Assembly (NCBI GenBank): GCA_902727895.1
Contig: CACVAP010000090.1
Span: forward strand, 5,129-69,128
Length of the DNA stretch: 64,000 bases
Source: an uncultured Sulfurovum sp.
GTDB lineage: Bacteria; Campylobacterota; Campylobacteria; Campylobacterales; Sulfurovaceae
Direction: 5' to 3'
The position numbers and the translations under genes are program-made. The stretch's first letter is position 1. The number at the start of each line of letters is the position of its first letter. The notes beneath the pieces are model-generated. The model worked only from the letters and a program-made list of their open reading frames with translations, was not told the origin of the DNA and did not search any database. Below are positions 6,955-64,000 of the stretch, one piece after another.

Positions 6955-9009
6955 TTATATGGTTATTTCTTGTATGTCTGCTATCTCTTTAAATGATTTA
7001 TAGATTGATGCAACCGTATTTTTACGGTTTGTTTTTACAGCTTCATCTTCTGCATTTACCATTACATCATCAAAGTAAGTATCTAGTTTTGATTTCAATG
7101 CAAACATCGCTGTTAATTGTTCTTCATATGAAGCATAAGACTGCGCCATAGTCCCTGTATAGTCGTCATATAACGTACTTTCTATATTTTCAGAGAAAAG
7201 TGCTCTGTCCACTTTTAGATCGGCATCAAGATTTACTTCTTTAGAGATGTTAGCAACACGCTTAAAGGTTGAAAGTTGCTCTTTAAAGCTCTCCTGAGAA
7301 ACAATGCTATTTAAAGCTGAAACCTTTTTAGCTATTTCATTTACATCAAGTTCACCTGAACCCAATACAGCTGCAATCACCGATGGATTCGCCACTAAAG
7401 ACTTTTTAATACGTTCTAAAATAAATTCAATAAGCTGAACCGTCTCATAATCAGCATAAAGTTCATTCAGAACATTAACTATTTCACTTAAGTTAAACGC
7501 TAAATCATAATTGATAACCATACGAACAATACCATTAACAGCACGACGTAGGGCAAATGGGTCTTTTGAACCAGAAGGTATTTTACCTACTGAGAAAAGT
7601 CCAATGAGTGTGTCAAGCTTAATTGACATCGCAACAATAGCAGAGAAAGTAGAAGATGGAAGTTCAGCACCCTCACCTAAAGGGAAGTACTGCTCTTTAA
7701 TGGCTGTGTAAACAACCTCATCTTTACCCAATGCTTTTGCATAGTAATAACCCATAAGCCCTTGAAGTTCTGTAAACTCATAAACCATTTCAGAAGTAAG
7801 ATCAGCTTTTGCCAATGAAATGGTTTCAGCCATTAGTTCTTTTAGCTCTGCTTCATTCTTTCCAGTCTCAGTTTTTACCTGTTCCATATAAAGGTCAAGT
7901 AGTTTAGCAGCTATTTTACTTTCACGGTCTATTTTGTCCGTTAAAGTTCCAAGACCATCCATAAAAGTAATCTTTTCTAAACCATCAGTAAGTAGTCCAC
8001 GTTTTAAATCGTTTCTATAAAAGAAAAGACCATCAGCCAAACGTGGTTTGAGTACTCTTTCATTTCCAGCCACAACTTTAGAATAGTCACCATTATCAGG
8101 TACTGCATTTGAGACAACCACAAACTTGTTAGAAAGGGTATCCTTTTCAAACACAGGAAAATAACGTTGATGCTCTTTCATAGAAGCAATAATGGCTTCA
8201 GGTGGTAACTCAATAAACAGTTCATCAAAAGTACCAAGAAGTGACTTAGGATTTTCAGTAATAGCCACAATCTCAGCCAACAAATCCAAGTCTCTTTCTA
8301 TAACTATGCTATGCTCTTTTTCAAGCTCATCAAACTCAGCTAAGATTTTCGCTTCTCTGTTCTTAGGATACAAAGAAACTTCACCTTTAGCCAAGATATT
8401 TTCATACTCTGCCACATCAGCAACTTCAACAGCATCAAAGTTCACCATTCTATGTACATAAGTTTTTGTGTCAGATTTTATACCAAAAAGTTCCACATCT
8501 ACAGAGTCATTATCCATACGTACTTGTAACCAACGAATAGGACGAATAAACTCATCAGTTCGACTTCCCCAACGCATCATTTTCCCAAATGCCATTGAAC
8601 CCAGCCATTTTGTCAACATCTCTTCAAGTAAAGTTACAGTTTCTGATCCTGCTTGCTCTTGTTTATAGTAAAGGCATTCTTTCCCTTTTTTCTCTATACG
8701 TCCAAGCGCTTCAAAACTCACACCACATTTACGTGCAAAACCTTCTCCAGCTTTTGTAACCACGCCATCACGAACAGCAGCCATAAGAGGTGGTCCAACC
8801 AGTTCAGTTGTATTGTCAGCTTGTTTAGTAGGTATTGCCGTATGTCGAAGTACTAAACGACGAGGGGTATAGATAAATTCAAACTCGGATTCGAGTCTAT
8901 ATTCTACGAGTAAATCTTTCCATGATTTTTCAATATTTTTTACAATTTTAAGAAGTGGTATAGCAGGTAGTTCTTCTACCCCTATTTCGATAAGAAGTGC
9001 TTTTGTCAT
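6955..9009 (-). CDS. glyS: glycine--tRNA ligase beta subunit
   Basis: 684 aa. N-terminus is LLIEIGVEELPA and the layout is GlyS-like throughout (TPRRL, HQRYFP, DPFALRR). Confidence 0.95.
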   Translation of the reverse strand: MTKALLIEIGVEELPAIPLLKIVKNIEKSWKDLLVEYRLESEFEFIYTPRRLVLRHTAIPTKQADNTTELVGPPLMAAVRDGVVTKAGEGFARKCGVSFEALGRIEKKGKECLYYKQEQAGSETVTLLEEMLTKWLGSMAFGKMMRWGSRTDEFIRPIRWLQVRMDNDSVDVELFGIKSDTKTYVHRMVNFDAVEVADVAEYENILAKGEVSLYPKNREAKILAEFDELEKEHSIVIERDLDLLAEIVAITENPKSLLGTFDELFIELPPEAIIASMKEHQRYFPVFEKDTLSNKFVVVSNAVPDNGDYSKVVAGNERVLKPRLADGLFFYRNDLKRGLLTDGLEKITFMDGLGTLTDKIDRESKIAAKLLDLYMEQVKTETGKNEAELKELMAETISLAKADLTSEMVYEFTELQGLMGYYYAKALGKDEVVYTAIKEQYFPLGEGAELPSSTFSAIVAMSIKLDTLIGLFSVGKIPSGSKDPFALRRAVNGIVRMVINYDLAFNLSEIVNVLNELYADYETVQLIEFILERIKKSLVANPSVIAAVLGSGELDVNEIAKKVSALNSIVSQESFKEQLSTFKRVANISKEVNLDADLKVDRALFSENIESTLYDDYTGTMAQSYASYEEQLTAMFALKSKLDTYFDDVMVNAEDEAVKTNRKNTVASIYKSFKEIADIQEITI

Positions 9010-9675: not shown

Positions 9676-11205
9676 TTATTTTAATTTTTCTAAAACTATC
9701 TTCAGCTCTTCTATAAGTTCTATACTATTTAAACATTCTTTACGATAAATTTCAATTTCCTCATTACTATGAGAAGAAGGATTAAATAAAATATTTTTAT
9801 AAAAATCTACTTTTATTAAAATAGATTTTAGATTTGATAAATCACATTTTTTCTGGGTTATTTCATTATTAATAACCTCTAAAAGCTCTCGCACTTTATC
9901 TATTTTTTTATCTTCATCCATTGTACTATTTAATATTCCCAATAAATTAGGAATACGTTTATTAATTTGATTCAAAAGGTCATGAGGCTTTACAGCAAAA
10001 ATAATATCATTAGATTTTAAAGCACCAATCATATCTTCTAGTTTTTCCATTTTTCCTATTTCTAATAACTGTTTAAATTCATGAACAATTTTTTCAAATT
10101 CTTTTCTTAAATAATTACCACTACTATGAAATTCTCCCCGTTTCAATTCTTTCTTTGCACGGTACAAATAGTTTACATTACTTTCTTTTATTAGTGCAGT
10201 TTCATGATTATTTTCTCTAAATAAAAATATATTTTTAATATCCCACTTCTCATTTTCATGTCTTATGTTTAACATTCTATTTATTAAATTATAAAACTGA
10301 ATATTATGAGTCAAAATAATTTTCTGGTACTTTCCAAAATTATCTAGAATATATTGAATAATTAGTTTTCTATTTGCCATATCTAAACTAGTTAGAAAAT
10401 CATCTAAGACTAAAAGCTTTAAGTCACTATTAGTCTCATACTTTTTAGCTAATGCAAAATAAATAGCAATAGAAATAAGTTTTAATTTAGCTTCATTAAA
10501 GTGATTTTTAAAATCTCCTTTATCATCAATATCTTTTACTTTTATAGCTATTTTAGGAGAGATAAACTTTTTAGTATCAAATTGAATATCAGAATCCTTA
10601 ACTTCAAAAATAATTTCAAAATTTTCATCTAACTTTTTTAAAATAATATTTACCTCATCTAAAGGTATCTTCTCTTGAAATTTTTCTTTAAATAATCTAT
10701 CAGCCTCTTGTCTCTCTATAACTAATTTTTCTTGTTCATCAATACTACTTCTGTTGACGCTTGTCCGAATCGTCCTATAAATAGAATCTAACTCTGTAAG
10801 TAATGGAAAATGTTTTATCAATTCACTATTAATAACTTGATAGAAATCATATTGAGTAATTTTCTGAAAAACCTTTTCATCTGCAAAATAAATAGTTTGA
10901 TTCTCTAACAGCTCTGCATTAGTTAATATATTATTTTCTCTGTTTAAGTAATTATTATTTAACTCAATATTAACTTCTAAATTCTCAGTAGAGAACTCTC
11001 TATGTATAAATTTCTCTTTTATATCTATTTGATTGGTCACTATTTTCTTATCTTTAAAATAGTAAAAGTTACTATAAAGAGCTTTATATATTGAGCTTTT
11101 ACCTGTTCCATTTTCTCCATAAACTAAGAAGTTCTGTTCGCTTATATCAAAATCTAGGTTATGATGAAATTTGAAGTTTCTAATTATCATATTATTTATT
11201 TTCAT
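9676..11205 (-). CDS. SMC/ABC-type (AAA_13-like) ATPase with extra C-terminal domain, partner of the DUF262 gene
   Basis: Walker A GENGTGKSS, then a ~200-aa helical insertion. Signature-like NEAKLKLISIAIYFAL, Walker B/D-loop LLVLDDFLTSLD and H-loop ILTHN follow. I place the start at ATG 11205 (MKINNMIIRNF...), not the track's 11247. AAGGAG lies 9 nt upstream and the upstream gene's TAA ends 1 nt before it. Confidence 0.75.
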   Translation of the reverse strand: MKINNMIIRNFKFHHNLDFDISEQNFLVYGENGTGKSSIYKALYSNFYYFKDKKIVTNQIDIKEKFIHREFSTENLEVNIELNNNYLNRENNILTNAELLENQTIYFADEKVFQKITQYDFYQVINSELIKHFPLLTELDSIYRTIRTSVNRSSIDEQEKLVIERQEADRLFKEKFQEKIPLDEVNIILKKLDENFEIIFEVKDSDIQFDTKKFISPKIAIKVKDIDDKGDFKNHFNEAKLKLISIAIYFALAKKYETNSDLKLLVLDDFLTSLDMANRKLIIQYILDNFGKYQKIILTHNIQFYNLINRMLNIRHENEKWDIKNIFLFRENNHETALIKESNVNYLYRAKKELKRGEFHSSGNYLRKEFEKIVHEFKQLLEIGKMEKLEDMIGALKSNDIIFAVKPHDLLNQINKRIPNLLGILNSTMDEDKKIDKVRELLEVINNEITQKKCDLSNLKSILIKVDFYKNILFNPSSHSNEEIEIYRKECLNSIELIEELKIVLEKLK

Positions 11206-11206
11206 C

Positions 11207-12931
11207 TTAATTAAACTCCTTGCTTCTATACTTATCATTCTCATCATCTAAGAATATCGCTAACCTTTTAATTAACTCTTTAGTCCTATCTTCAAGGTTC
11301 GTACCCACCAATTCATATTCTGAAATTTTTTTCCCTATTTTTCTTACATCTTTTATGTTAGAATTCAAAAATAATTTTACTTGATTATCAAAACTATTAT
11401 AATTTTGGGTAAAGTCTACAACTATTTTATTACCTAAACTTTTTTTAATTTCAGTATATTTATCTGGATAAAATGGAGAAGCCAACCACAGCTTTTTAGT
11501 AAGGTCGTTTCTTTTTTTCTTATCTTCTATTGTTAGAAGTCCATCTTTCTTATCATGTGAATTCATTTTTTGCATTATCTTTTTATCTAAAGTACTCATA
11601 GTGTCATGAATCATTATATAATTAAAAGAAAATAAAGGAGAAATTGCATTTTGCTCATTATTTAAATAAAAACTTAACAGAGTAAAAATATCTAATGATA
11701 AATCTTTTGGAATTTTATAACTATCTTTTACTAACTCATCAATTTTCAATTGAACCATCTCATAATTTTTTAGAATAAATTTTCTAATATATCTTCGAGA
11801 AAATAAAATCAATGAGTCATATTCTTGATGCTTATCTTTAGGATAATCCGTTAAACTAGTTTTATATAATTTTAAAATTAATTCTATATCAATTTTCTTT
11901 TTTTTATCTATATACTTAATAACTTGAAAGTACTTTGCCAATACAGGGTATACTTGTGGTCTATTAGAAACATCATTGTAAAAATTTATAGACTCTATTA
12001 TTCTAAATAAGTCATTAAATATTTCTTGATATTTTTTATGATTAAATGGAGAATCTTCTTTTTCTAAGAAAAAAATTCTTAAGTTAATCTCATTTTCAAT
12101 TTTGTTATTTTTATCAATATGAGCATATATCTTAAAGATTTCATCTATAGAGTAATTTATTTTATCAGAATAACTATATAATTTTTTCCATTGTTGAATA
12201 AACTCTTTATGTTCTAATTCATTTAATGCCATAGAGTATAGTCGTGCCTTAAATATATCAGAAGTAGAAAGACTTAATCCTCTATTATTGATGGTTTCAA
12301 AAATTTTCAATGCTTTTTCTCTAGCTTTATCAGCATCCTCATCTTCTGTTTCAATAGGTAATATATAGATAGAATCTAATAAAAAATCTGAAAACTTCAA
12401 TATATCATTATGTTTTTTAAACTCTTTTAACTCATTATAAAAATAACAAATATTTTTCTTAAATAAATTGTCTTTTTCTTTGATAGAATTACAAATATCA
12501 CTAGAAAGATTAAAAGCTAAAACTTCTTTAAAATAATTAAAATCTTTTTCCATAAAGACAGTGGTTTCTAATCGTTGTATCTCTTCATCTGTTCTTCTAT
12601 CTTTTATCCATATCGCATCATATAGAGCTTTATTATCTTTATCAAAACTCAATAATACCTTTAAAAGTAAAGTTAAAGAAGTAAGTCTCTGTTGACCATC
12701 AATAACCTCTAACTTATTTCTTTCTTCTCTACTTTTAGCAAGAACAATATTCCCCAAAAAATACCCCTCTTGCTCACTATCATAAAATGCTTTTTTTATA
12801 TCTTCAAAAAGTGCTTTACATTCAATATTTGTCCAAGAGTAGGCTCTTTGATATGGAGGAATAATATATTGATTCTCTCCACTAAAAATTTTATATATTG
12901 ATTTTTGTTCTGCATTTAATGTTAACGCCAT
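11207..12931 (-). CDS. DUF262 (GmrSD N-terminal, ParB-like NTPase/nuclease fold) domain protein
   Basis: 574 aa. Has the hallmark DUF262 motifs IPPYQRAYSW and VIDGQQRLTSLTLLL. The C-terminal third resembles a DUF1524 His-Me finger only weakly (IMIHD ... SLGNKIVV ... NYNSFDNQVK). Confidence 0.85.
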   Translation of the reverse strand: MALTLNAEQKSIYKIFSGENQYIIPPYQRAYSWTNIECKALFEDIKKAFYDSEQEGYFLGNIVLAKSREERNKLEVIDGQQRLTSLTLLLKVLLSFDKDNKALYDAIWIKDRRTDEEIQRLETTVFMEKDFNYFKEVLAFNLSSDICNSIKEKDNLFKKNICYFYNELKEFKKHNDILKFSDFLLDSIYILPIETEDEDADKAREKALKIFETINNRGLSLSTSDIFKARLYSMALNELEHKEFIQQWKKLYSYSDKINYSIDEIFKIYAHIDKNNKIENEINLRIFFLEKEDSPFNHKKYQEIFNDLFRIIESINFYNDVSNRPQVYPVLAKYFQVIKYIDKKKKIDIELILKLYKTSLTDYPKDKHQEYDSLILFSRRYIRKFILKNYEMVQLKIDELVKDSYKIPKDLSLDIFTLLSFYLNNEQNAISPLFSFNYIMIHDTMSTLDKKIMQKMNSHDKKDGLLTIEDKKKRNDLTKKLWLASPFYPDKYTEIKKSLGNKIVVDFTQNYNSFDNQVKLFLNSNIKDVRKIGKKISEYELVGTNLEDRTKELIKRLAIFLDDENDKYRSKEFN

Positions 12932-57338: not shown

Positions 57339-58460
57339 TTAACATTGGAAAACAATATCCCCATCAACATACACCTCAGAGATTTCAAATGCTTCATTAA
57401 ACAGCACAAAATCAGCCTCAAAGCCTTTTTCTATAAGCCCTTTGTTCAGTCCTAGTTTTTTAGCAGGGATCGTCGTAACCGTAGCAAGCAATTCAGGTAA
57501 ACTAATATCAGTATGTTCATAAAAATTCTTCAAGGCTTCATTCATTTTTAAAACAGAGCCAGCCAGTGTTCCATCTTCAAGCCGTGCTTCTCCATCTTTA
57601 ACAATCACTTTTTGACCACCAATATCAGAAACACCACAATGCAAACACCCTGCTCTCATGGCATCGGTGATCAAAATTAACTGCTCTTTTTTAAGTTTAG
57701 TCAACAAGTTAAAAAAAGAAGGATGAATGTGTATTAAATCTGCAATGACATCAAATGAAACCTCATCAGCTTCAAGCACAGCCCCAACAATCCCTGGTTC
57801 TCGATGATGCAAAGGATTCATAGCATTAAACAAATGCGTAGCATGAGAAACACCCCAAGAAAAACTCTCTTTACATTCCTCATAAGAAGCATTTGAATGT
57901 CCAACACTTAGTAAAACATGAGGATACTCTTTAGATAAATATTCTATAAACTCTCTAGCTCCATCAACTTCAGGTGCTAGTGTTATCATCTTCACGATGT
58001 CCATAAAAGGCAATATAAGTTCCATATTCGGCTTTTGAACATACTTGTCATTTTGCGCACCCTTCTTAGCAACATTAATAAAAGGTCCTTCCAAATGCAC
58101 ACCCAAAATCTTTGCACCACTTTTTTGCTCAAAATTTTGAACATTTAACAAGGCACAATAAATATCTTCTTTACTCATGGTCATAGTCGTTGCCAAAAAA
58201 GAAGTCGTCCCTGTTTGCAGTATACTTTTAGACATCTCAGCCAAAGCTTCTTCGGTTCCATCCATTACATCATAACCATTTGAACCATGTATGTGGATGT
58301 CAATAAATCCAGCAGAAAGGTAAAGCCCTTGTGCATCCATAAGTTCTGTGTTTTCAGGTACGTCTTGACTCAAAGCAACTATTTTCTCATCAAAAGAAAG
58401 TGCATAACCTTCTAAAACCTCATCTTGCGTAATTATCTTTGCATTTACAATCGTTTTCAT
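57339..58460 (-). CDS. nagA: N-acetylglucosamine-6-phosphate deacetylase
   Basis: 373 aa. Contains GFIDIHIHGSNGYDVMDG, GTTSFLATT, LEGPF, HLFNAM and ITDAM. Confidence 0.85.
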   Translation of the reverse strand: MKTIVNAKIITQDEVLEGYALSFDEKIVALSQDVPENTELMDAQGLYLSAGFIDIHIHGSNGYDVMDGTEEALAEMSKSILQTGTTSFLATTMTMSKEDIYCALLNVQNFEQKSGAKILGVHLEGPFINVAKKGAQNDKYVQKPNMELILPFMDIVKMITLAPEVDGAREFIEYLSKEYPHVLLSVGHSNASYEECKESFSWGVSHATHLFNAMNPLHHREPGIVGAVLEADEVSFDVIADLIHIHPSFFNLLTKLKKEQLILITDAMRAGCLHCGVSDIGGQKVIVKDGEARLEDGTLAGSVLKMNEALKNFYEHTDISLPELLATVTTIPAKKLGLNKGLIEKGFEADFVLFNEAFEISEVYVDGDIVFQC

Positions 58461-58894
58461 TAACGAATCGACCTTATGTTGGTTTGACTTAACTTATATA
58501 TTTTAGAAGCTTGTCCATTTTTTTTCTTAGGAAAAGAAACTATCACTTCGGCATTGTCTTTGGCGTATTGTTCTTCATAGTCTGCACCACTTAAGTTTGC
58601 TGAAGAAGAGTAAAACCATTTGAGCCGATCTAAAAGTAAATTGTGTTCCGTATTTTTAACCACACGAAATGACAAGCCATTGGGCATAATAAACGTTGTT
58701 CGTTTAGCACGACGCACACGGTTTTTAAATTTGTTAGGAACACGCGTAAATGTTTGTAAAGTTTCTAAAGAATTAACCACCTGTATATAGTGCTTATTTG
58801 GCTTCCTCTTTTTAGCTCGGTCTATTTTTGTACTCTCTTGAGAAACAAAGCCTATGGTGGTGTCTGTTTGGGTTAGGTAGAGGTTAGTTTTCAT
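58460..58894 (-). CDS. short Sua5/YciO/YrdC/YwlC family protein
   Basis: 144 aa. TDTTIGF (compare TDTVYG) and SSANLSG (compare TSAN.SG). TAATG overlap with nagA. AAGGAA RBS lies inside the end of the giant upstream ORF. Confidence 0.65.
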   Translation of the reverse strand: MKTNLYLTQTDTTIGFVSQESTKIDRAKKRKPNKHYIQVVNSLETLQTFTRVPNKFKNRVRRAKRTTFIMPNGLSFRVVKNTEHNLLLDRLKWFYSSSANLSGADYEEQYAKDNAEVIVSFPKKKNGQASKIYKLSQTNIRSIR

Positions 58895-61800
58895 TTAACT
58901 TCCTTTGTGCTAATGTTTTATTATTAATTGTCCTAAACTTCAATGGTAAAAAATATTTAGAATACTCCAAAGGTAACTCCATTAAGAGTTTATTAATTAT
59001 TACCTTTATCTCTTCATCATTTTCAAGACTAAATAATCCTAAATATTTTGAGAAAAGTTTAATTCTTAATTCAATATTATTTGTTTGCTTAATAGGCATG
59101 TAAATTAGTATTTCAAATAATGTAGCTCTTTGCTGTTTAGTTGTTATTTTAAGAGATATATTTTTAATATCTTCTTTAACTTTATTAGAAATTTGATAGT
59201 CATTAATATTTTTGAGTTGCTTTACAAAAAATAATGAATCATATAAACTTAGTAAAACTTGTTCTTCTGTATCTGAAAGAGGGGTATATTTTTCTATGGT
59301 TTCTACCAATCTATTTTTTAAATCATTACTCAGAGGGTAAACATTATATTTTAAATTAAAAAATGTAATAAATATAGAGTTATTTTCATTAGATACCTCT
59401 TCCATTTCTTCTAGCATCTCTTTTAATCTTGGGAAAGTATCTAAAATAGAGTTTTCTTCTAGTTGTAAAAAAGAATTAATAGCATTAAATCTATTATGTG
59501 TTAATTGTGTGAAATCTGGATAAGCGTCTTCTCTTATTAACTCTTCTAATTTTCTTTTTATAATAGAACTACCAAAGTAATCAAGGTTATCATCTGTAAT
59601 ATATGAAATAGAAGTCATTACAAATTCCTCATAGCTTAAATCATAATTCAACAAGTCCATACTATATGAACTATCAGGTCTAAATACTTCTAAAGTAACT
59701 CTATTAGAATGAGTCTTAAATTCTTTAAGTATCCAACTATAATCTACACTATAAGCAGTAAAATATTTCATTAGTTTATTGCTATGCGACCAAATAAGGG
59801 CTATTTTCATATCATCATTTAAAGTAGTAAATTTAATATCAAACTCTTGTTTAATAAATTTCTTTATAGCAAAGAATGCTTCTAATCTTAATTTAAATTC
59901 TTTAGTAAATATCTTTTTTGTCAGATAGAGTATAAACTTTTTATAGCTATCATTTTGAATAGACACCAAGACTTTTATAAGTTGTATATGTGATATTGGT
60001 GTAGATGAAGTATTTAAAAATGCTTTTAAAATTTCTTTTTGTTCTTTGTCTATTTTATCTTTTAATATATCAATGATTTGTTGAGGAAAAGAGATAGGGA
60101 AATGATGTATCTCATCAATGGTCTTTAAAATATCTTCTTCATTTACAAAAGTTTCTACAGAGAGATTAAATGCTTCATTAAATTCAAGGCTACTGTCTAG
60201 TCTAAAATGATTTAAAAGTATATCTATATTATCAGGAATTAAAGAGTCAAAATTTAACCTTTGCTTTTCTAAATCCTTTTGAATATTAGAGTAAAATTTA
60301 GAATCTTCTTTAACTTGATATAGTTTTTCTATTCTCTCATGATGATTCTGAACATTAATAATATCATGGATTAACTCTTTTTTCTTTGTATCTGACATGT
60401 CAAACCATTCAGGGTTTGCTTCTAATAACTTTTTTCTCTTAGGTCTTGATGTTGATAAAAGCATAAAGGTATCATTCATAAAGCCCTGATTATTAATTTT
60501 AATTCGTTTTTGATTTTCAATTATAATAGATTCTAAAATAATAGATTCATTCTTATCTATAGCTTTTATTATCTCTTTACCACCACCATTTATAACTTTT
60601 TTAATTTGATTATTAAAGACTTCATTATTGAATAATAAACCATTGACACCTATTCTTTTTTCAAATGGTAACTTTTCTATTAATTCTTTATTTTCATATA
60701 AATTATTTTTAATTTTTTCAGGTAAATTGCTAATCAGTCCTATAACTATTATCTGCTCCTCTTCTTTTAAATCTTTTATAAAAAAACTTTGAATTAATGA
60801 ATAGCTTAGGTTATCAATAAAATTTTGAAATAACTCAGAATTAGCCTTAAAAAACTTTGATATCAAATTATGATATATCCAATCAAAATACAATTTTTGA
60901 TTTTCATCAGAAATAATAGTAATTGCTTGAATAAATAGACTTGTAATTTCTATTACAGTCATAGTTCTTGTAATATCAGTATTATCTGATAGTTTATTTT
61001 TTATTAAAGAGAACATATTTAAAGTAAACAAGTTTTCTAAAACCCAATTTAAATAAATATATCTATCTTCTTCGTATTCAAAATCTTCATTCCATAAATC
61101 AATAATACTATGATTTATCTCTCTTACTTGATTTATTACAAAAAATGGTTCTGAATATTGGTTATTCTCTATCTCTGTTTGTTCAAATGGTTTAATATAT
61201 TTAAAATTCTGAACCATAAATTGTAATGACTCTTTTAATGTTTTTAAATCTTCACTTTCTTCTACTCTATTCCCTTCTATTTTACACTGTTTTAGATGAT
61301 AAATTATTTCTTTTGAACTAATAAGTAAAAAAAGATACTTTCTTTTTCTTATTTCTAATAAGCTAGAGTAGTATTCATGTTTTGTGATTATCTTACTTTT
61401 ATAAAATGTAAATAGTATATCATTTACACTAATTATTTCATTTTCATTTTTAGTTGTTTGAAAACTATTAACATATCTATCATCTATACAAATTAATATA
61501 TTATCTTTTTGAAATTCTAATAAAGTATAAATTGAAAGAAGTAAGTTTGATGACTCTTCTTTATCTTTTAATTTTTCTTTACTTACTTCAGGAGCATAAT
61601 ATAATTTTTCAAGTTTAAAATTTATTTTTAACAACTCTATTAACTCATGAGAAACATTAATATCATGCAAAATAAAAAATATATTACTTGGTAAATAAAC
61701 TTTAACAAAGGAATCAATGACTAGCTGTAACTGATGAATTGAGAACAATAAAAGTAAAGAAGTTATATCCAAATATAATTTAGCACTTTTAAATTTTTCA

Positions 61801-63995
61801 AGTTCTAAAAAAGTATATTTTTTGGCACTTCTAATATAAAGAGTTTTTTGATTTTCTTTACAAAAGCTATTAAAAAAATCTCTATCTAAATAATGAATTG
61901 AAATATCAGAGTTTTTATACAGAGTAGTTTCATGATTTTTTTGTTCATTAATTTTAGATGCGTATCCTTCAATTTCATTAAGGTTTATCATCTGACCTAT
62001 GATACTTTTATCCTCAATTAATTGGGGTAAATATGAAATTACTAAGTCATTTATAATACCATTTTTATGCAAATCTAAAGCCAGTTCTTTTTCTGATTTA
62101 TTTATACCATTATTATTTATGACTTCTTGTAAAAGAACAGAGCTATTTTTAGATACTGATGCAATTTGGATTTTAGAGTTAATATCAATATTTGGATTTT
62201 TAATTACATTAGTTGCCAAAGTTTCTAATTTATCTTGAGAGTCAGTTTTTTTATAAAAATAAGTTAAATTTGATATATCCTCTAATTTATTTGTAAAGTT
62301 ATTTTTTTCATAAATTTGTATTGAGCGTTCAGGAAAACCTAATGAGCTTTCACAAGTAGCCTTTATCTTTAAAAAGCTATCTTTTATTAATTTACTATTA
62401 ACTTTAGGTAACCATATATCTATAAGTTTATTTGCTTTATCAAAGTTTTGACTATTTATTTCCCCTAAAATAACTAATTCAACAACCTTTTCAGTTTGAA
62501 AATACTTTAACAAATAATCTGAATATTCAGTAATATATTCCCAATTATTCTCTTCTGATTTCATCTCACAAATTTTTAAGCGATAAATAGGATTTTTATT
62601 CTCTTTAAATAATTTCTCATATAACTCAGAAGCTGACTTATAATCATTGGTCACTTTATATATATGAGCCTTAACATCATCTTTTCTACTCATATCATTT
62701 TCATCAACAAATTTTAAAGCCTCTTTATAAAGTTCAAAATTTATTAAAATATTTATATAGTACTCTCTCCAATAATCTATTTTATTTTCTTCAAGATAAA
62801 TATTTTTATATTTATCTAATACTTCAAATGTTTTCTTTTTATCTTCCTGTTTAAAATAATACCTAATCAGAGTATCTGCTTTGTATAGATTATTAATATC
62901 TTCATCTAACTCTAAATTCTTTATATCCTCTCTAATATCTATGTTTAAATCATAAATAATATTAAATTGAACAGCCACAAGTCTATACTTTTTATCCTCA
63001 TATAAACTTTGAATATACTCTATAGCTTCATCTATGTTTATTAACCATTTAATAGTTGCTATCCAAGCTTTATCTCTATATTCAGAATTCTCTTTTTCAA
63101 CTTCATCTAGTATAGTTTTTGCCATATTTATTTTTTCTTGGCTTTTACTGTCTATTTTTAATGCATTTTTTTGAATAATAGGTGGAAGTAAATTAGGAAG
63201 AACATCATATAGTGTTGATTGGTAAAAAAGAATAATAGCTTTTACTCGTTTTGATTCTAAATAATTGTCTTTTATATCTAATGATTTATTTATATCTTTT
63301 AATGCTTGTTCATGATTATCATCTTTACGGTACAATTCATACAATGATTTCAGTCTATAAGTTTCATGATTTCTATCTTTTATATCAATAAGGTCTAATG
63401 TTGCCTTTACATCTTGAAAATTATTTGTACTCATATATAATGCTATTTTTTGATTTAATGTTGCTACTTCATTGTTATCAAGTAATAAAATAGCTTTAGC
63501 TAGGTCACCTTTATCAAATTCAATCCAAGATAAAAGTCTATTTACATATAATGAACTATCTAATTGTTGTACCTTATCTACTAAAGATTCAGTTTTATCA
63601 GATTCATTAGTTATAGATACTCTAGCTTCTTCATAAACTATTTTAGCTTTTTGTTGATTTGAAAGAATACTCCATTTAGGAGATATTTTAATTTCATCTA
63701 TCCAAGTTTGTACCTCTTTTTCTGTTCCATTAAGATATTCATCTTTGATTTTTTTGAACTCTTTTGTAACTTCCTCTTGAATAATAATCTTATACTCATC
63801 TAATTGCAAACTACTTGATTGTTGTAGAGAGCTTGATACTTCTATGCTTGTTGACTCTAGTGTTACTATCTCAATACCACCATACTTTTCTAAAGAAATA
63901 TCTTTCAATAAAAAACTAACATTTATACAATCAAATGAATTATTATCTGTAATAACCTTAGATATTACTCCTGTAAGCATATAATCACTATTCAC
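58884..63995 (-). CDS. giant hypothetical protein (at least 1703 aa) with TPR-like repeats and an internal PIN-like region; N-terminus may lie outside the window
   Basis: Uninterrupted 5.1-kb ORF. The track start is GTG at 63995, but the frame is still open to position 64000. The N-terminal third is helical-repeat rich. I saw no Walker A motif. Very AT-rich. Confidence 0.6.
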   Translation of the reverse strand: MNSDYMLTGVISKVITDNNSFDCINVSFLLKDISLEKYGGIEIVTLESTSIEVSSSLQQSSSLQLDEYKIIIQEEVTKEFKKIKDEYLNGTEKEVQTWIDEIKISPKWSILSNQQKAKIVYEEARVSITNESDKTESLVDKVQQLDSSLYVNRLLSWIEFDKGDLAKAILLLDNNEVATLNQKIALYMSTNNFQDVKATLDLIDIKDRNHETYRLKSLYELYRKDDNHEQALKDINKSLDIKDNYLESKRVKAIILFYQSTLYDVLPNLLPPIIQKNALKIDSKSQEKINMAKTILDEVEKENSEYRDKAWIATIKWLINIDEAIEYIQSLYEDKKYRLVAVQFNIIYDLNIDIREDIKNLELDEDINNLYKADTLIRYYFKQEDKKKTFEVLDKYKNIYLEENKIDYWREYYINILINFELYKEALKFVDENDMSRKDDVKAHIYKVTNDYKSASELYEKLFKENKNPIYRLKICEMKSEENNWEYITEYSDYLLKYFQTEKVVELVILGEINSQNFDKANKLIDIWLPKVNSKLIKDSFLKIKATCESSLGFPERSIQIYEKNNFTNKLEDISNLTYFYKKTDSQDKLETLATNVIKNPNIDINSKIQIASVSKNSSVLLQEVINNNGINKSEKELALDLHKNGIINDLVISYLPQLIEDKSIIGQMINLNEIEGYASKINEQKNHETTLYKNSDISIHYLDRDFFNSFCKENQKTLYIRSAKKYTFLELEKFKSAKLYLDITSLLLLFSIHQLQLVIDSFVKVYLPSNIFFILHDINVSHELIELLKINFKLEKLYYAPEVSKEKLKDKEESSNLLLSIYTLLEFQKDNILICIDDRYVNSFQTTKNENEIISVNDILFTFYKSKIITKHEYYSSLLEIRKRKYLFLLISSKEIIYHLKQCKIEGNRVEESEDLKTLKESLQFMVQNFKYIKPFEQTEIENNQYSEPFFVINQVREINHSIIDLWNEDFEYEEDRYIYLNWVLENLFTLNMFSLIKNKLSDNTDITRTMTVIEITSLFIQAITIISDENQKLYFDWIYHNLISKFFKANSELFQNFIDNLSYSLIQSFFIKDLKEEEQIIVIGLISNLPEKIKNNLYENKELIEKLPFEKRIGVNGLLFNNEVFNNQIKKVINGGGKEIIKAIDKNESIILESIIIENQKRIKINNQGFMNDTFMLLSTSRPKRKKLLEANPEWFDMSDTKKKELIHDIINVQNHHERIEKLYQVKEDSKFYSNIQKDLEKQRLNFDSLIPDNIDILLNHFRLDSSLEFNEAFNLSVETFVNEEDILKTIDEIHHFPISFPQQIIDILKDKIDKEQKEILKAFLNTSSTPISHIQLIKVLVSIQNDSYKKFILYLTKKIFTKEFKLRLEAFFAIKKFIKQEFDIKFTTLNDDMKIALIWSHSNKLMKYFTAYSVDYSWILKEFKTHSNRVTLEVFRPDSSYSMDLLNYDLSYEEFVMTSISYITDDNLDYFGSSIIKRKLEELIREDAYPDFTQLTHNRFNAINSFLQLEENSILDTFPRLKEMLEEMEEVSNENNSIFITFFNLKYNVYPLSNDLKNRLVETIEKYTPLSDTEEQVLLSLYDSLFFVKQLKNINDYQISNKVKEDIKNISLKITTKQQRATLFEILIYMPIKQTNNIELRIKLFSKYLGLFSLENDEEIKVIINKLLMELPLEYSKYFLPLKFRTINNKTLAQRKLNEN

Positions 63996-64000
63996 TGTAG

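Follow-up and report, generated by a model that had tools for sequence, protein, structure and literature searches.

The giant gene and its relatives

The window analysed here is a stretch of 64,000 nucleotides from an uncultured Sulfurovum sp. (contig CACVAP010000090.1), and its last 5.1 kb are occupied by a single giant gene on the minus strand, which ends at the start of a yrdC-like–nagA–aroQ–M24 peptidase operon and is the subject of this report. With 1703 aa counted from a GTG (58884..63995 (-)), it is the longest open reading frame (ORF) of the window, the runner-up being 742 aa long, and an earlier note on this DNA, made from the letters alone, had rightly described it as such and as open at the window edge. 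The reading frame is unbroken up to 63998, the final whole codon of the window (1704 open codons). The gene has a G+C content of 23.4%, compared to 33.1% elsewhere in the window, so the low value of about 22% that the note obtained by hand from 60 nucleotides was a good indication. With 43% A and 34% T in the coding strand, about one stop per 10 codons is expected in this frame, and the remaining five frames contain 85-300 stops apiece. At a stop probability of 0.10 per codon, 1704 open codons would occur by chance with P ~1e-79, and the ORF can therefore not be a chance product. A regular-expression search of the giant protein found no Walker A motif, in line with the note, which had seen no NTPase motif. 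The GTG at 63995, from which the 1703 aa are counted, is not the true start, since close homologues run ∼170-230 aa further at the N-terminus in the alignment. On the same alignment, about 180 N-terminal residues are expected outside the window, which is predicted to contain the 3′ 5.1 kb of a gene of ∼5.6-5.8 kb.

When the window protein was scanned directly, nothing in Pfam, PADLOC, or NCBIfam matched above threshold, and only tetratricopeptide repeats (TPR) appeared below it. Relatives were found with phmmer in a database of 5.8 billion proteins. Seven close homologues of 1863-1934 aa share 45-57% identity with the window protein along the full length, and two distant ones, P0008 and P0009, share ∼20% (E 1.9e-52 and 3.6e-46). 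These two match the Pfam model PF24407, HTH_upst_double_PIN (E 5e-14 and 6.5e-10), as do the further relatives up to P0013. The distant homologues also fall slightly below the threshold of PF20698 (PIN-TPR-GreABC, 'PIN domain associated with the TPR-GreAB-C-PIN system'), a model matched by homologues only and not by the window protein, and have weak matches to PF24388 (Permuted_GreAB-C).

A core profile (alignment A2), built from aa 640-1704 of the window protein and six homologues, was searched against 1.84 billion cluster representatives. It retrieved 1751 clusters at E<=1e-3, of which 720 at E<=1e-30, and spans more than 100 proteins of 1300-2300 aa from end to end (best E 1e-236). All of the 24 sampled representatives carry PF24407 and 6 of them carry PF20698, and for this reason we assign the core family to the TPR–GreA/B-C–PIN (TGP) conflict systems (Kaur, Iyer, Burroughs & Aravind, eLife 2021, PMC8195603, section 7). 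Judged from these sequence relationships, the giant gene is most readily understood as a strain-specific phage-defence gene of the TGP-like superfamily, belonging to its HTH_upst_double_PIN branch. TGP proteins are described as consisting of an N-terminal effector that varies between proteins, a TPR array, and a constant but rapidly evolving core with a PIN domain (PMC8195603). The N-terminal effector likewise differs between the relatives found here: it is a trypsin-like protease in the close clade, an HNH nuclease in P0008, and a weak Mrr-like match in P0009, and among the 24 representatives PNPase was found in three, GT4-conflict in one, and trypsin in one. The earlier note had suspected a giant repeat-scaffold conflict protein with an embedded nuclease, which the PIN domain, the defence-island location of homologues, and the TGP-like family all support. 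It had also stated that the protein could not be placed; the matches of distant homologues to PF24407 and PF20698 now provide a place for it, and the architecture is present in the source data of Kaur et al. 2021.

Other searches added little. The core profile had no match among PDB sequences, a scan of viral contigs for relatives of the giant protein found none, and a scan of genome contigs found a single distant relative, from Pyrinomonadaceae. Length and composition may have influenced the results: full-length P0001 (1882 aa, AT-rich) had no PADLOC match at E<=0.01, whereas its first 223 aa matched LmuA at 1e-22. Long low-complexity queries thus appear to lose PADLOC matches, and proteins that are long and compositionally biased need to be scanned domain by domain.

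Predicted protease, nuclease, and scaffold domains

The window protein begins 3 residues past the GYSGSGLF motif of its homologues. In the alignment with the seven close homologues, its aa 1-45 (63864..64000 (-)) correspond to the C-terminal tail of a trypsin-like serine protease domain and are near-identical to the protease tail of P0003, and the His, Asp, and Ser motifs lie beyond the window edge. The N-terminal 220 aa of the seven close homologues contain invariant TTRH (His), DLVVL (Asp), and GYSGSG (Ser) motifs, with H47, D91, and S175 as the invariant triad. In PADLOC, these N-termini match LmuA PDLC03855 (7 of 7, 1e-22 to 1e-25), RT_UG9_large (7 of 7), and the N-terminus of Avs2 (6 of 7), the LmuA, UG9, and Avs2 matches together spanning 1e-10 to 1e-25. 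Pfam matches are to Trypsin (best 8e-5) and Trypsin_2. A profile of the protease N-terminus searched against PDB sequences gave only non-significant matches to factor Xa, factor IXa, and enteropeptidase around the Ser motif.

A gene encoding a protein of the metallo-β-lactamase (MBL) fold (∼355 aa) is found directly upstream of the giant gene in each of the five readable loci of close homologues, and its stop overlaps the start of the giant gene by 11-35 nt. At L013 the MBL gene had been shortened by the gene caller, and tblastn revealed a full-length copy with 63% identity. The MBL proteins match PADLOC LmuA PDLC03854 at 1e-81 to 1e-86, as well as RTasMBL and Avs1a, and bear a ComEC-like H-x-D-x-D-H motif (H-S-D-R-D-H). 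In the distant homologues P0008 and P0009, no MBL gene lies beside the giant gene. In the Sulfurovum copy, the catalytic part of the protease and the MBL gene would be located beyond the window edge.

The predicted nuclease is a compact single PIN-like domain at aa 739-885 (61344..61784 (-)), recognised from conserved acidic residues, an AlphaFold2 (AF2) model of the domain, and Foldseek searches. The acidic residues are D744, at the end of the first strand in LYLDITSLLLL, D773, likewise conserved, which comes after strand 2, D839 and D840 in ICIDDRY, and D860 in VNDIL. In an alignment of 10 sequences, D744, D839, D840, and R841 are invariant and D860 is at least 90% conserved, and the equivalents of D744 and of the DDR motif are invariant across the 24 diverse representatives. 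The spacing of the acidic residues (+29, +95, and +116) is one that we take to resemble canonical VapC PINs. The AF2 model of the domain alone has strands alternating with helices (pLDDT 81.7, pTM 0.81). When this model was compared with the PDB, the most probable matches were PIN domains, namely those of SMG6, SMG5, and EST1A (prob 0.82-0.89, TM 0.45-0.59), VapC4, and PAE2754; a 948-residue chain of a 90S pre-ribosome complex was matched at prob 0.99. Three weak-to-moderate lines of evidence thus concur in supporting a PIN domain at aa 739-885. The earlier note had found no HNH and no obvious protease or kinase motif, and the apparent absence of a nuclease and a protease arose because the PIN domain was missed and the protease domain is cut by the window edge down to the tail at aa 1-45.

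In the window clade, made up of the window protein and the seven close homologues, the first Asp and the DDR motif are 95 residues apart, which is the size of one ordinary PIN domain, and the clade therefore represents a compact single-PIN version. In 121 of the 138 proteins measured the distance is ∼250-300 aa (about 275), corresponding to a 'double PIN' region, and the PIN region of most family members is ∼180 aa larger than in the window clade. A second repeat unit in the double-PIN members (P0008-P0012 and L006; alignments A4/A5) aligns with the first strand and helix of the PIN domain, and its catalytic Asp is gone, LDIS/LDIT being replaced by LMST, CLHS, LKSE, or FFAN, so one of the two PIN units looks degenerate. 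Compared to the ∼2000-aa proteins of the PF24407/PF24388 family, the window protein thus aligns end to end over aa 640-1704 and shares the invariant D and DDR motifs, but differs in the distance between these motifs and in lacking a direct Pfam match.

From the N-terminus, the predicted architecture is a trypsin-like protease, a TPR-like array, an HTH-like region, a single PIN domain, a helical domain, a small beta domain that is possibly a permuted GreA/B-C domain, and a helical C-terminal domain. The TPR-like helical repeat region (aa 46-640; 62079..63863 (-)) is assigned from sequence, with both Pfam matches of the window protein below threshold (TPR_19, E=0.021; TPR_2, E=0.039). Over the equivalent region, distant family members have significant E-values to TPR/ANAPC3 (best 2.5e-10). 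For the TPR-like hairpins that the note had described in the first ∼560 residues, Pfam support in the window protein itself is only sub-threshold. We presume that the region serves as a sensor or oligomerisation scaffold. The next region, aa 672-727 (61818..61985 (-)), aligns in A1 with the PF24407 (HTH_upst_double_PIN) matches of P0008 and P0009. PF24407 is matched weakly by the close homologues P0005 and P0007 (E 0.03-0.06) and not by the window protein, and AF2 confidence is below 50 across this region.

Downstream of the PIN domain, a helical linker domain conserved family-wide (aa 886-1112; 60663..61343 (-)) is all-helical in the AF2 core model (pLDDT ∼70-90) and aligns end to end in more than 100 representatives. 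It is followed by a small beta-beta-alpha-beta-beta-beta domain (aa 1113-1170; 60489..60662 (-)), modelled at residues 476-529 of the core with pLDDT ∼70-80. At the aligned position, 5 of 9 homologue fragments match Permuted_GreAB-C, all below threshold (12-20 bits vs a cut-off of 27), and the window fragment has no match to this model. An hhalign comparison of the beta domain with a tandem Escherichia coli GreA C-terminal domain gave a probability of 0.4% and thus no support. This domain is the sole candidate for a permuted GreA/B-C domain, as yet unconfirmed. The C-terminal domain (aa 1171-1704; 58887..60488 (-)) is all-helical in the AF2 model and also conserved family-wide, with W1403, H1405, and D1448 invariant. 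With the 1065-aa core model, the Foldseek matches were confined to uninformative helical-repeat proteins, importins and FANCD2 among them.

The junction with the yrdC-like operon

The last codons and the stop of the giant gene extend over the ATG of the YrdC-like gene with an 11-nt overlap (58884..58894 (-)), which the sequence itself and a break of homology in related contigs mark as an insertion junction. ATGAAAACTAA contains both the start of the YrdC-like gene (144 aa) and the stop of the giant gene, and an AGGAAG is placed 4 nt 5′ of the YrdC-like ATG. The observation in the note that the giant gene stops 11 nt inside the YrdC-like gene, with the ribosome-binding site within its last codons, was therefore accurate. 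Its operon spacings also held for the 1-nt overlap of the YrdC-like gene with nagA and for the 44-nt gap between nagA and aroQ; the gap between aroQ and the M24 peptidase gene, given as 44 nt, is 43 nt. Matches in a promoter and terminator scan at the giant–yrdC-like junction were no more frequent than by chance, and no terminator-like site was found there, so read-through transcription into the yrdC-like operon is possible.

The window NagA is 87% identical to NagA of an uncultured Sulfurovum, and three related Sulfurovum contigs retain the order yrdC-like (144-150 aa)–nagA–aroQ–M24 peptidase together with downstream synteny. The giant gene is absent from all three. Nucleotide homology between the window and these contigs starts at the yrdC-like start codon, with none upstream, where L009 has genes for Fic, a leucine-rich repeat (LRR) kinase, and unknown proteins, L010 has two Fic genes, and L011 has small ORFs and core genes. 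Conversely, the DNA similarity of homologous loci to the window is limited to the giant gene (65-75% identity) and stops at ∼58916-58935, 10-17 codons short of the stop of the window gene, and yrdC adjoins the giant gene in none of the five homologous loci. Since the three related contigs keep the operon without the giant gene, the 11-nt overlap is a local insertion junction and not a conserved coupling. It arose by accident when a low-GC cassette inserted at a variable site, and the coupling to a housekeeping operon that the note had read from it is exposed as an insertion artefact. The question raised in the note, whether the giant gene is always found upstream of the yrdC-like gene, is answered in the negative by the same five loci.

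The homologues have a G+C content 5-7 points below that of their flanks. Their neighbours include type I restriction-modification genes, an OLD-family nuclease with a UvrD helicase, DarT/NADAR (DarTG), AbiE, and AAA_15/21 ATPases, and, as mobile functions, a phage integrase and a Tn7-like transposon. Between L004 and a Sulfurovum contig, the T2SSE proteins share only 38% identity.

Several details of these neighbourhoods deserve mention. The site upstream of the yrdC-like operon holds Fic genes, an LRR-protein kinase fusion, a Trypsin_2 protein, and unknown ORFs in the related contigs (L009 2655-9479, L010 7069-9549), and this variability suggests an insertion hotspot for accessory and conflict genes. 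At L012 (1-16478) the pair of MBL and giant genes is found between a phage-type integrase and two proteins, one adenosine-deaminase-like of 760 aa and one of 801 aa, a pair reminiscent of RADAR; the arrangement points to an integrative element with several defence systems. At L005 (8812-10603), a gene for an AAA_15/AAA_21 ATPase (418 aa) begins 1 base past the giant stop, and a 180-aa gene that overlaps it comes next. This ATPase could represent either a neighbouring system unrelated to the L005 giant copy or an accessory to that copy.

Interpretation and alternative readings

The MBL-fold protein has a known role in other systems. It is a gated pro-nuclease activated by a fused trypsin-like protease, and this MBL/fused-protease cassette has been shown experimentally in Hachiman (HamMAB), Avs, and Lamassu (Tuck et al., Science 2025, PMC12799240; Evans et al., bioRxiv 10.1101/2025.11.14.688446). 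Only for Hachiman and Avs has it been shown that the nuclease is unmasked by proteolysis when the sensor oligomerises. Sensors named in this work are Hachiman, Avs (Avs1/2/4), Lamassu/ABC3C, DRT, retron, SPARTA, Dsr2, and '20 uncharacterized' types; a TGP-like sensor is not named in the main texts of the two papers, and may be among the '20 uncharacterized types'. The homologues described here share with the cassettes an MBL gene directly upstream of a gene with the same N-terminal protease type, and the ComEC-like H-x-D-x-D-H motif. They differ in that the sensor is a TGP-like TPR–PIN scaffold without an NTPase, and in that the carrier holds a second nuclease, the PIN domain. Agp, the sensor of the anti-T5 abortive-infection system Bab/Agp, is a TGP protein (bioRxiv 10.1101/2024.11.07.622273). 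TGP proteins and the window family have in common a giant single polypeptide, a variable N-terminal effector, a TPR or TPR-like array, a PIN domain, rapid evolution, and location in defence islands, and distant homologues of the window protein match Pfam models built for TGP. The differences lie in the order of domains (TPR–HTH–PIN–...–beta domain vs TPR–GreAB-C–PIN), in length (∼1900 aa for a window-type protein vs 1100-1700 aa), in the GreA/B-C domain, for which the window protein has only a candidate, and in the partner, which is an MBL nuclease instead of an amyloid-signalling Bell protein. The eukaryotic proteins SMG6, SMG5, and EST1A, which are the named structures that the PIN model matches best, also combine a helical-repeat scaffold with a C-terminal PIN domain. 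They act in nonsense-mediated decay and have no detectable sequence relationship to the window protein, so the likeness is an analogy of architecture only.

We consider it probable that an abortive-infection module of two genes is involved and that the window contains the greater part of its large subunit. In this module, an MBL pro-nuclease would be paired with a protease–TPR–HTH–PIN–helical sensor. The TPR, HTH, and C-terminal scaffold would sense infection and oligomerise; the signal proposed by Kaur et al. is engagement of a hijacked RNA polymerase (PMC8195603). The clustered protease domains would then cut the gating loops of the MBL zymogen, and the released MBL enzyme would degrade double-stranded DNA and abort the infection. 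The PIN domain, with its retained acidic residues, may serve as a first-line RNase on invader transcripts. Several points weigh against this reading. The protease catalytic residues and the MBL gene are both located beyond the window edge, and the window protein fails every Pfam, PADLOC, and NCBIfam threshold, so that its putative family membership is by transitive homology at ∼20% identity. A single PIN is present in the window clade, in contrast to the 'double PIN' region of most family members, and the comparison of the PIN-like model with the PDB gave no match at E<=1e-3, the PIN matches having E 0.02 or worse. The RNA polymerase step is without direct support because the GreA/B-C-like domain is unconfirmed, and experimental data on TGP-like sensors concern Bab/Agp, which is not of the window protein's branch.

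Three other explanations were weighed against the two-gene module. The giant protein might be a stand-alone TGP effector, binding RNA polymerase via the GreA/B-C-like domain while the PIN domain cleaves extruded invader transcripts, with the protease acting on other targets or the MBL protein being absent or non-essential. TGP systems have indeed been described as mostly stand-alone genes (Kaur et al., PMC8195603), the distant members P0008 and P0009 have no MBL neighbour, and the PIN acidic residues are invariant family-wide. We regard this as unlikely, given that the MBL gene overlaps the start of the giant gene in 5 of 5 close-clade contexts, that the protease is of exactly the type paired with MBL pro-nucleases, and that no GreA/B-C domain can be detected in the window protein. 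Somewhat less likely still is a decaying or orphaned copy, with an intact scaffold that lost its partner or N-terminus at insertion and is no longer functional. In its favour, the last 10-17 codons are non-homologous to other copies, which suggests that the 3′ end was remodelled at the junction, and the N-terminus and partner gene do lie beyond the window edge. However, the frame is uninterrupted over 1704 codons at a stop probability of 10% per codon, every family-invariant residue is kept, and the first 45 residues are near-identical to the P0003 protease tail.

The reading implied by the title of the note, in which the gene would encode a housekeeping or structural protein particular to this lineage and expressed together with the yrdC-like–nagA–aroQ–pepP operon, can hardly be maintained. 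The physical overlap of 11 nt with the yrdC-like start and the lack of a terminator-like site between the two genes would fit it. It was nevertheless rejected and is largely refuted already, as three related Sulfurovum contigs have the operon with other upstream genes and DNA homology ending at the yrdC ATG, five homologous copies are found beside unrelated defence genes with similarity to the window confined to the giant gene, and the G+C content of the giant gene is 10 points under that of the genome.

With the two-gene module as the favoured reading, an apparent orphan giant ORF becomes a recognisable defence module. Its kind is already known by prediction and partly by experiment, since Pfam models exist for the family and published source data include the exact gene pair; the combination of a TGP-like scaffold with a protease-gated MBL DNase has been published in supplementary tables only. 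What is new is a divergent, compact, single-PIN clade of Campylobacterota that profile libraries do not recognise directly. With 1751 clusters in the HTH_upst_double_PIN branch alone, TGP-like sensors are abundant. More tentatively, and against our own leaning, the Sulfurovum clade may represent a streamlined, undescribed sensor class, with a single PIN domain, no recognisable GreA/B-C domain, no NTPase, and a captured MBL-protease cassette. If so, two nucleases, namely an RNase-like PIN and a protease-gated DNase, would be under the control of one scaffold, the clade would count among the 'uncharacterized' sensor types that go with MBL-protease modules, and it could show how NTPase-free TPR scaffolds detect infection. 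In other respects, the giant gene is, on the favoured reading, an ordinary accessory defence gene. The compact AT-rich version from Campylobacterota could be a tractable construct for asking what NTPase-free sensors of this kind recognise and whether the PIN domain is a true first-line effector.

Two further observations concern other genes of the window. The YrdC-like protein (58460-58894 (-)) is unusually short at 144 aa. It scores 30.7 bits against Pfam Sua5_yciO_yrdC, narrowly above the cut-off of 25.1, and far under the NCBIfam TsaC cut-off. Related Sulfurovum contigs have kept this short form as well, so the protein is perhaps not a canonical threonylcarbamoyl-AMP synthase. A second low-GC islet (9676-12931 (-); 23.7% G+C in 10-12 kb) is located near glyS (6955-9009) and encodes a GmrSD_N (DUF262) protein of 574 aa (E 3e-38), the gene of which overlaps that of an SMC_N/AAA_15 ATPase of 523 aa. 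This islet is probably another small defence module between core genes.

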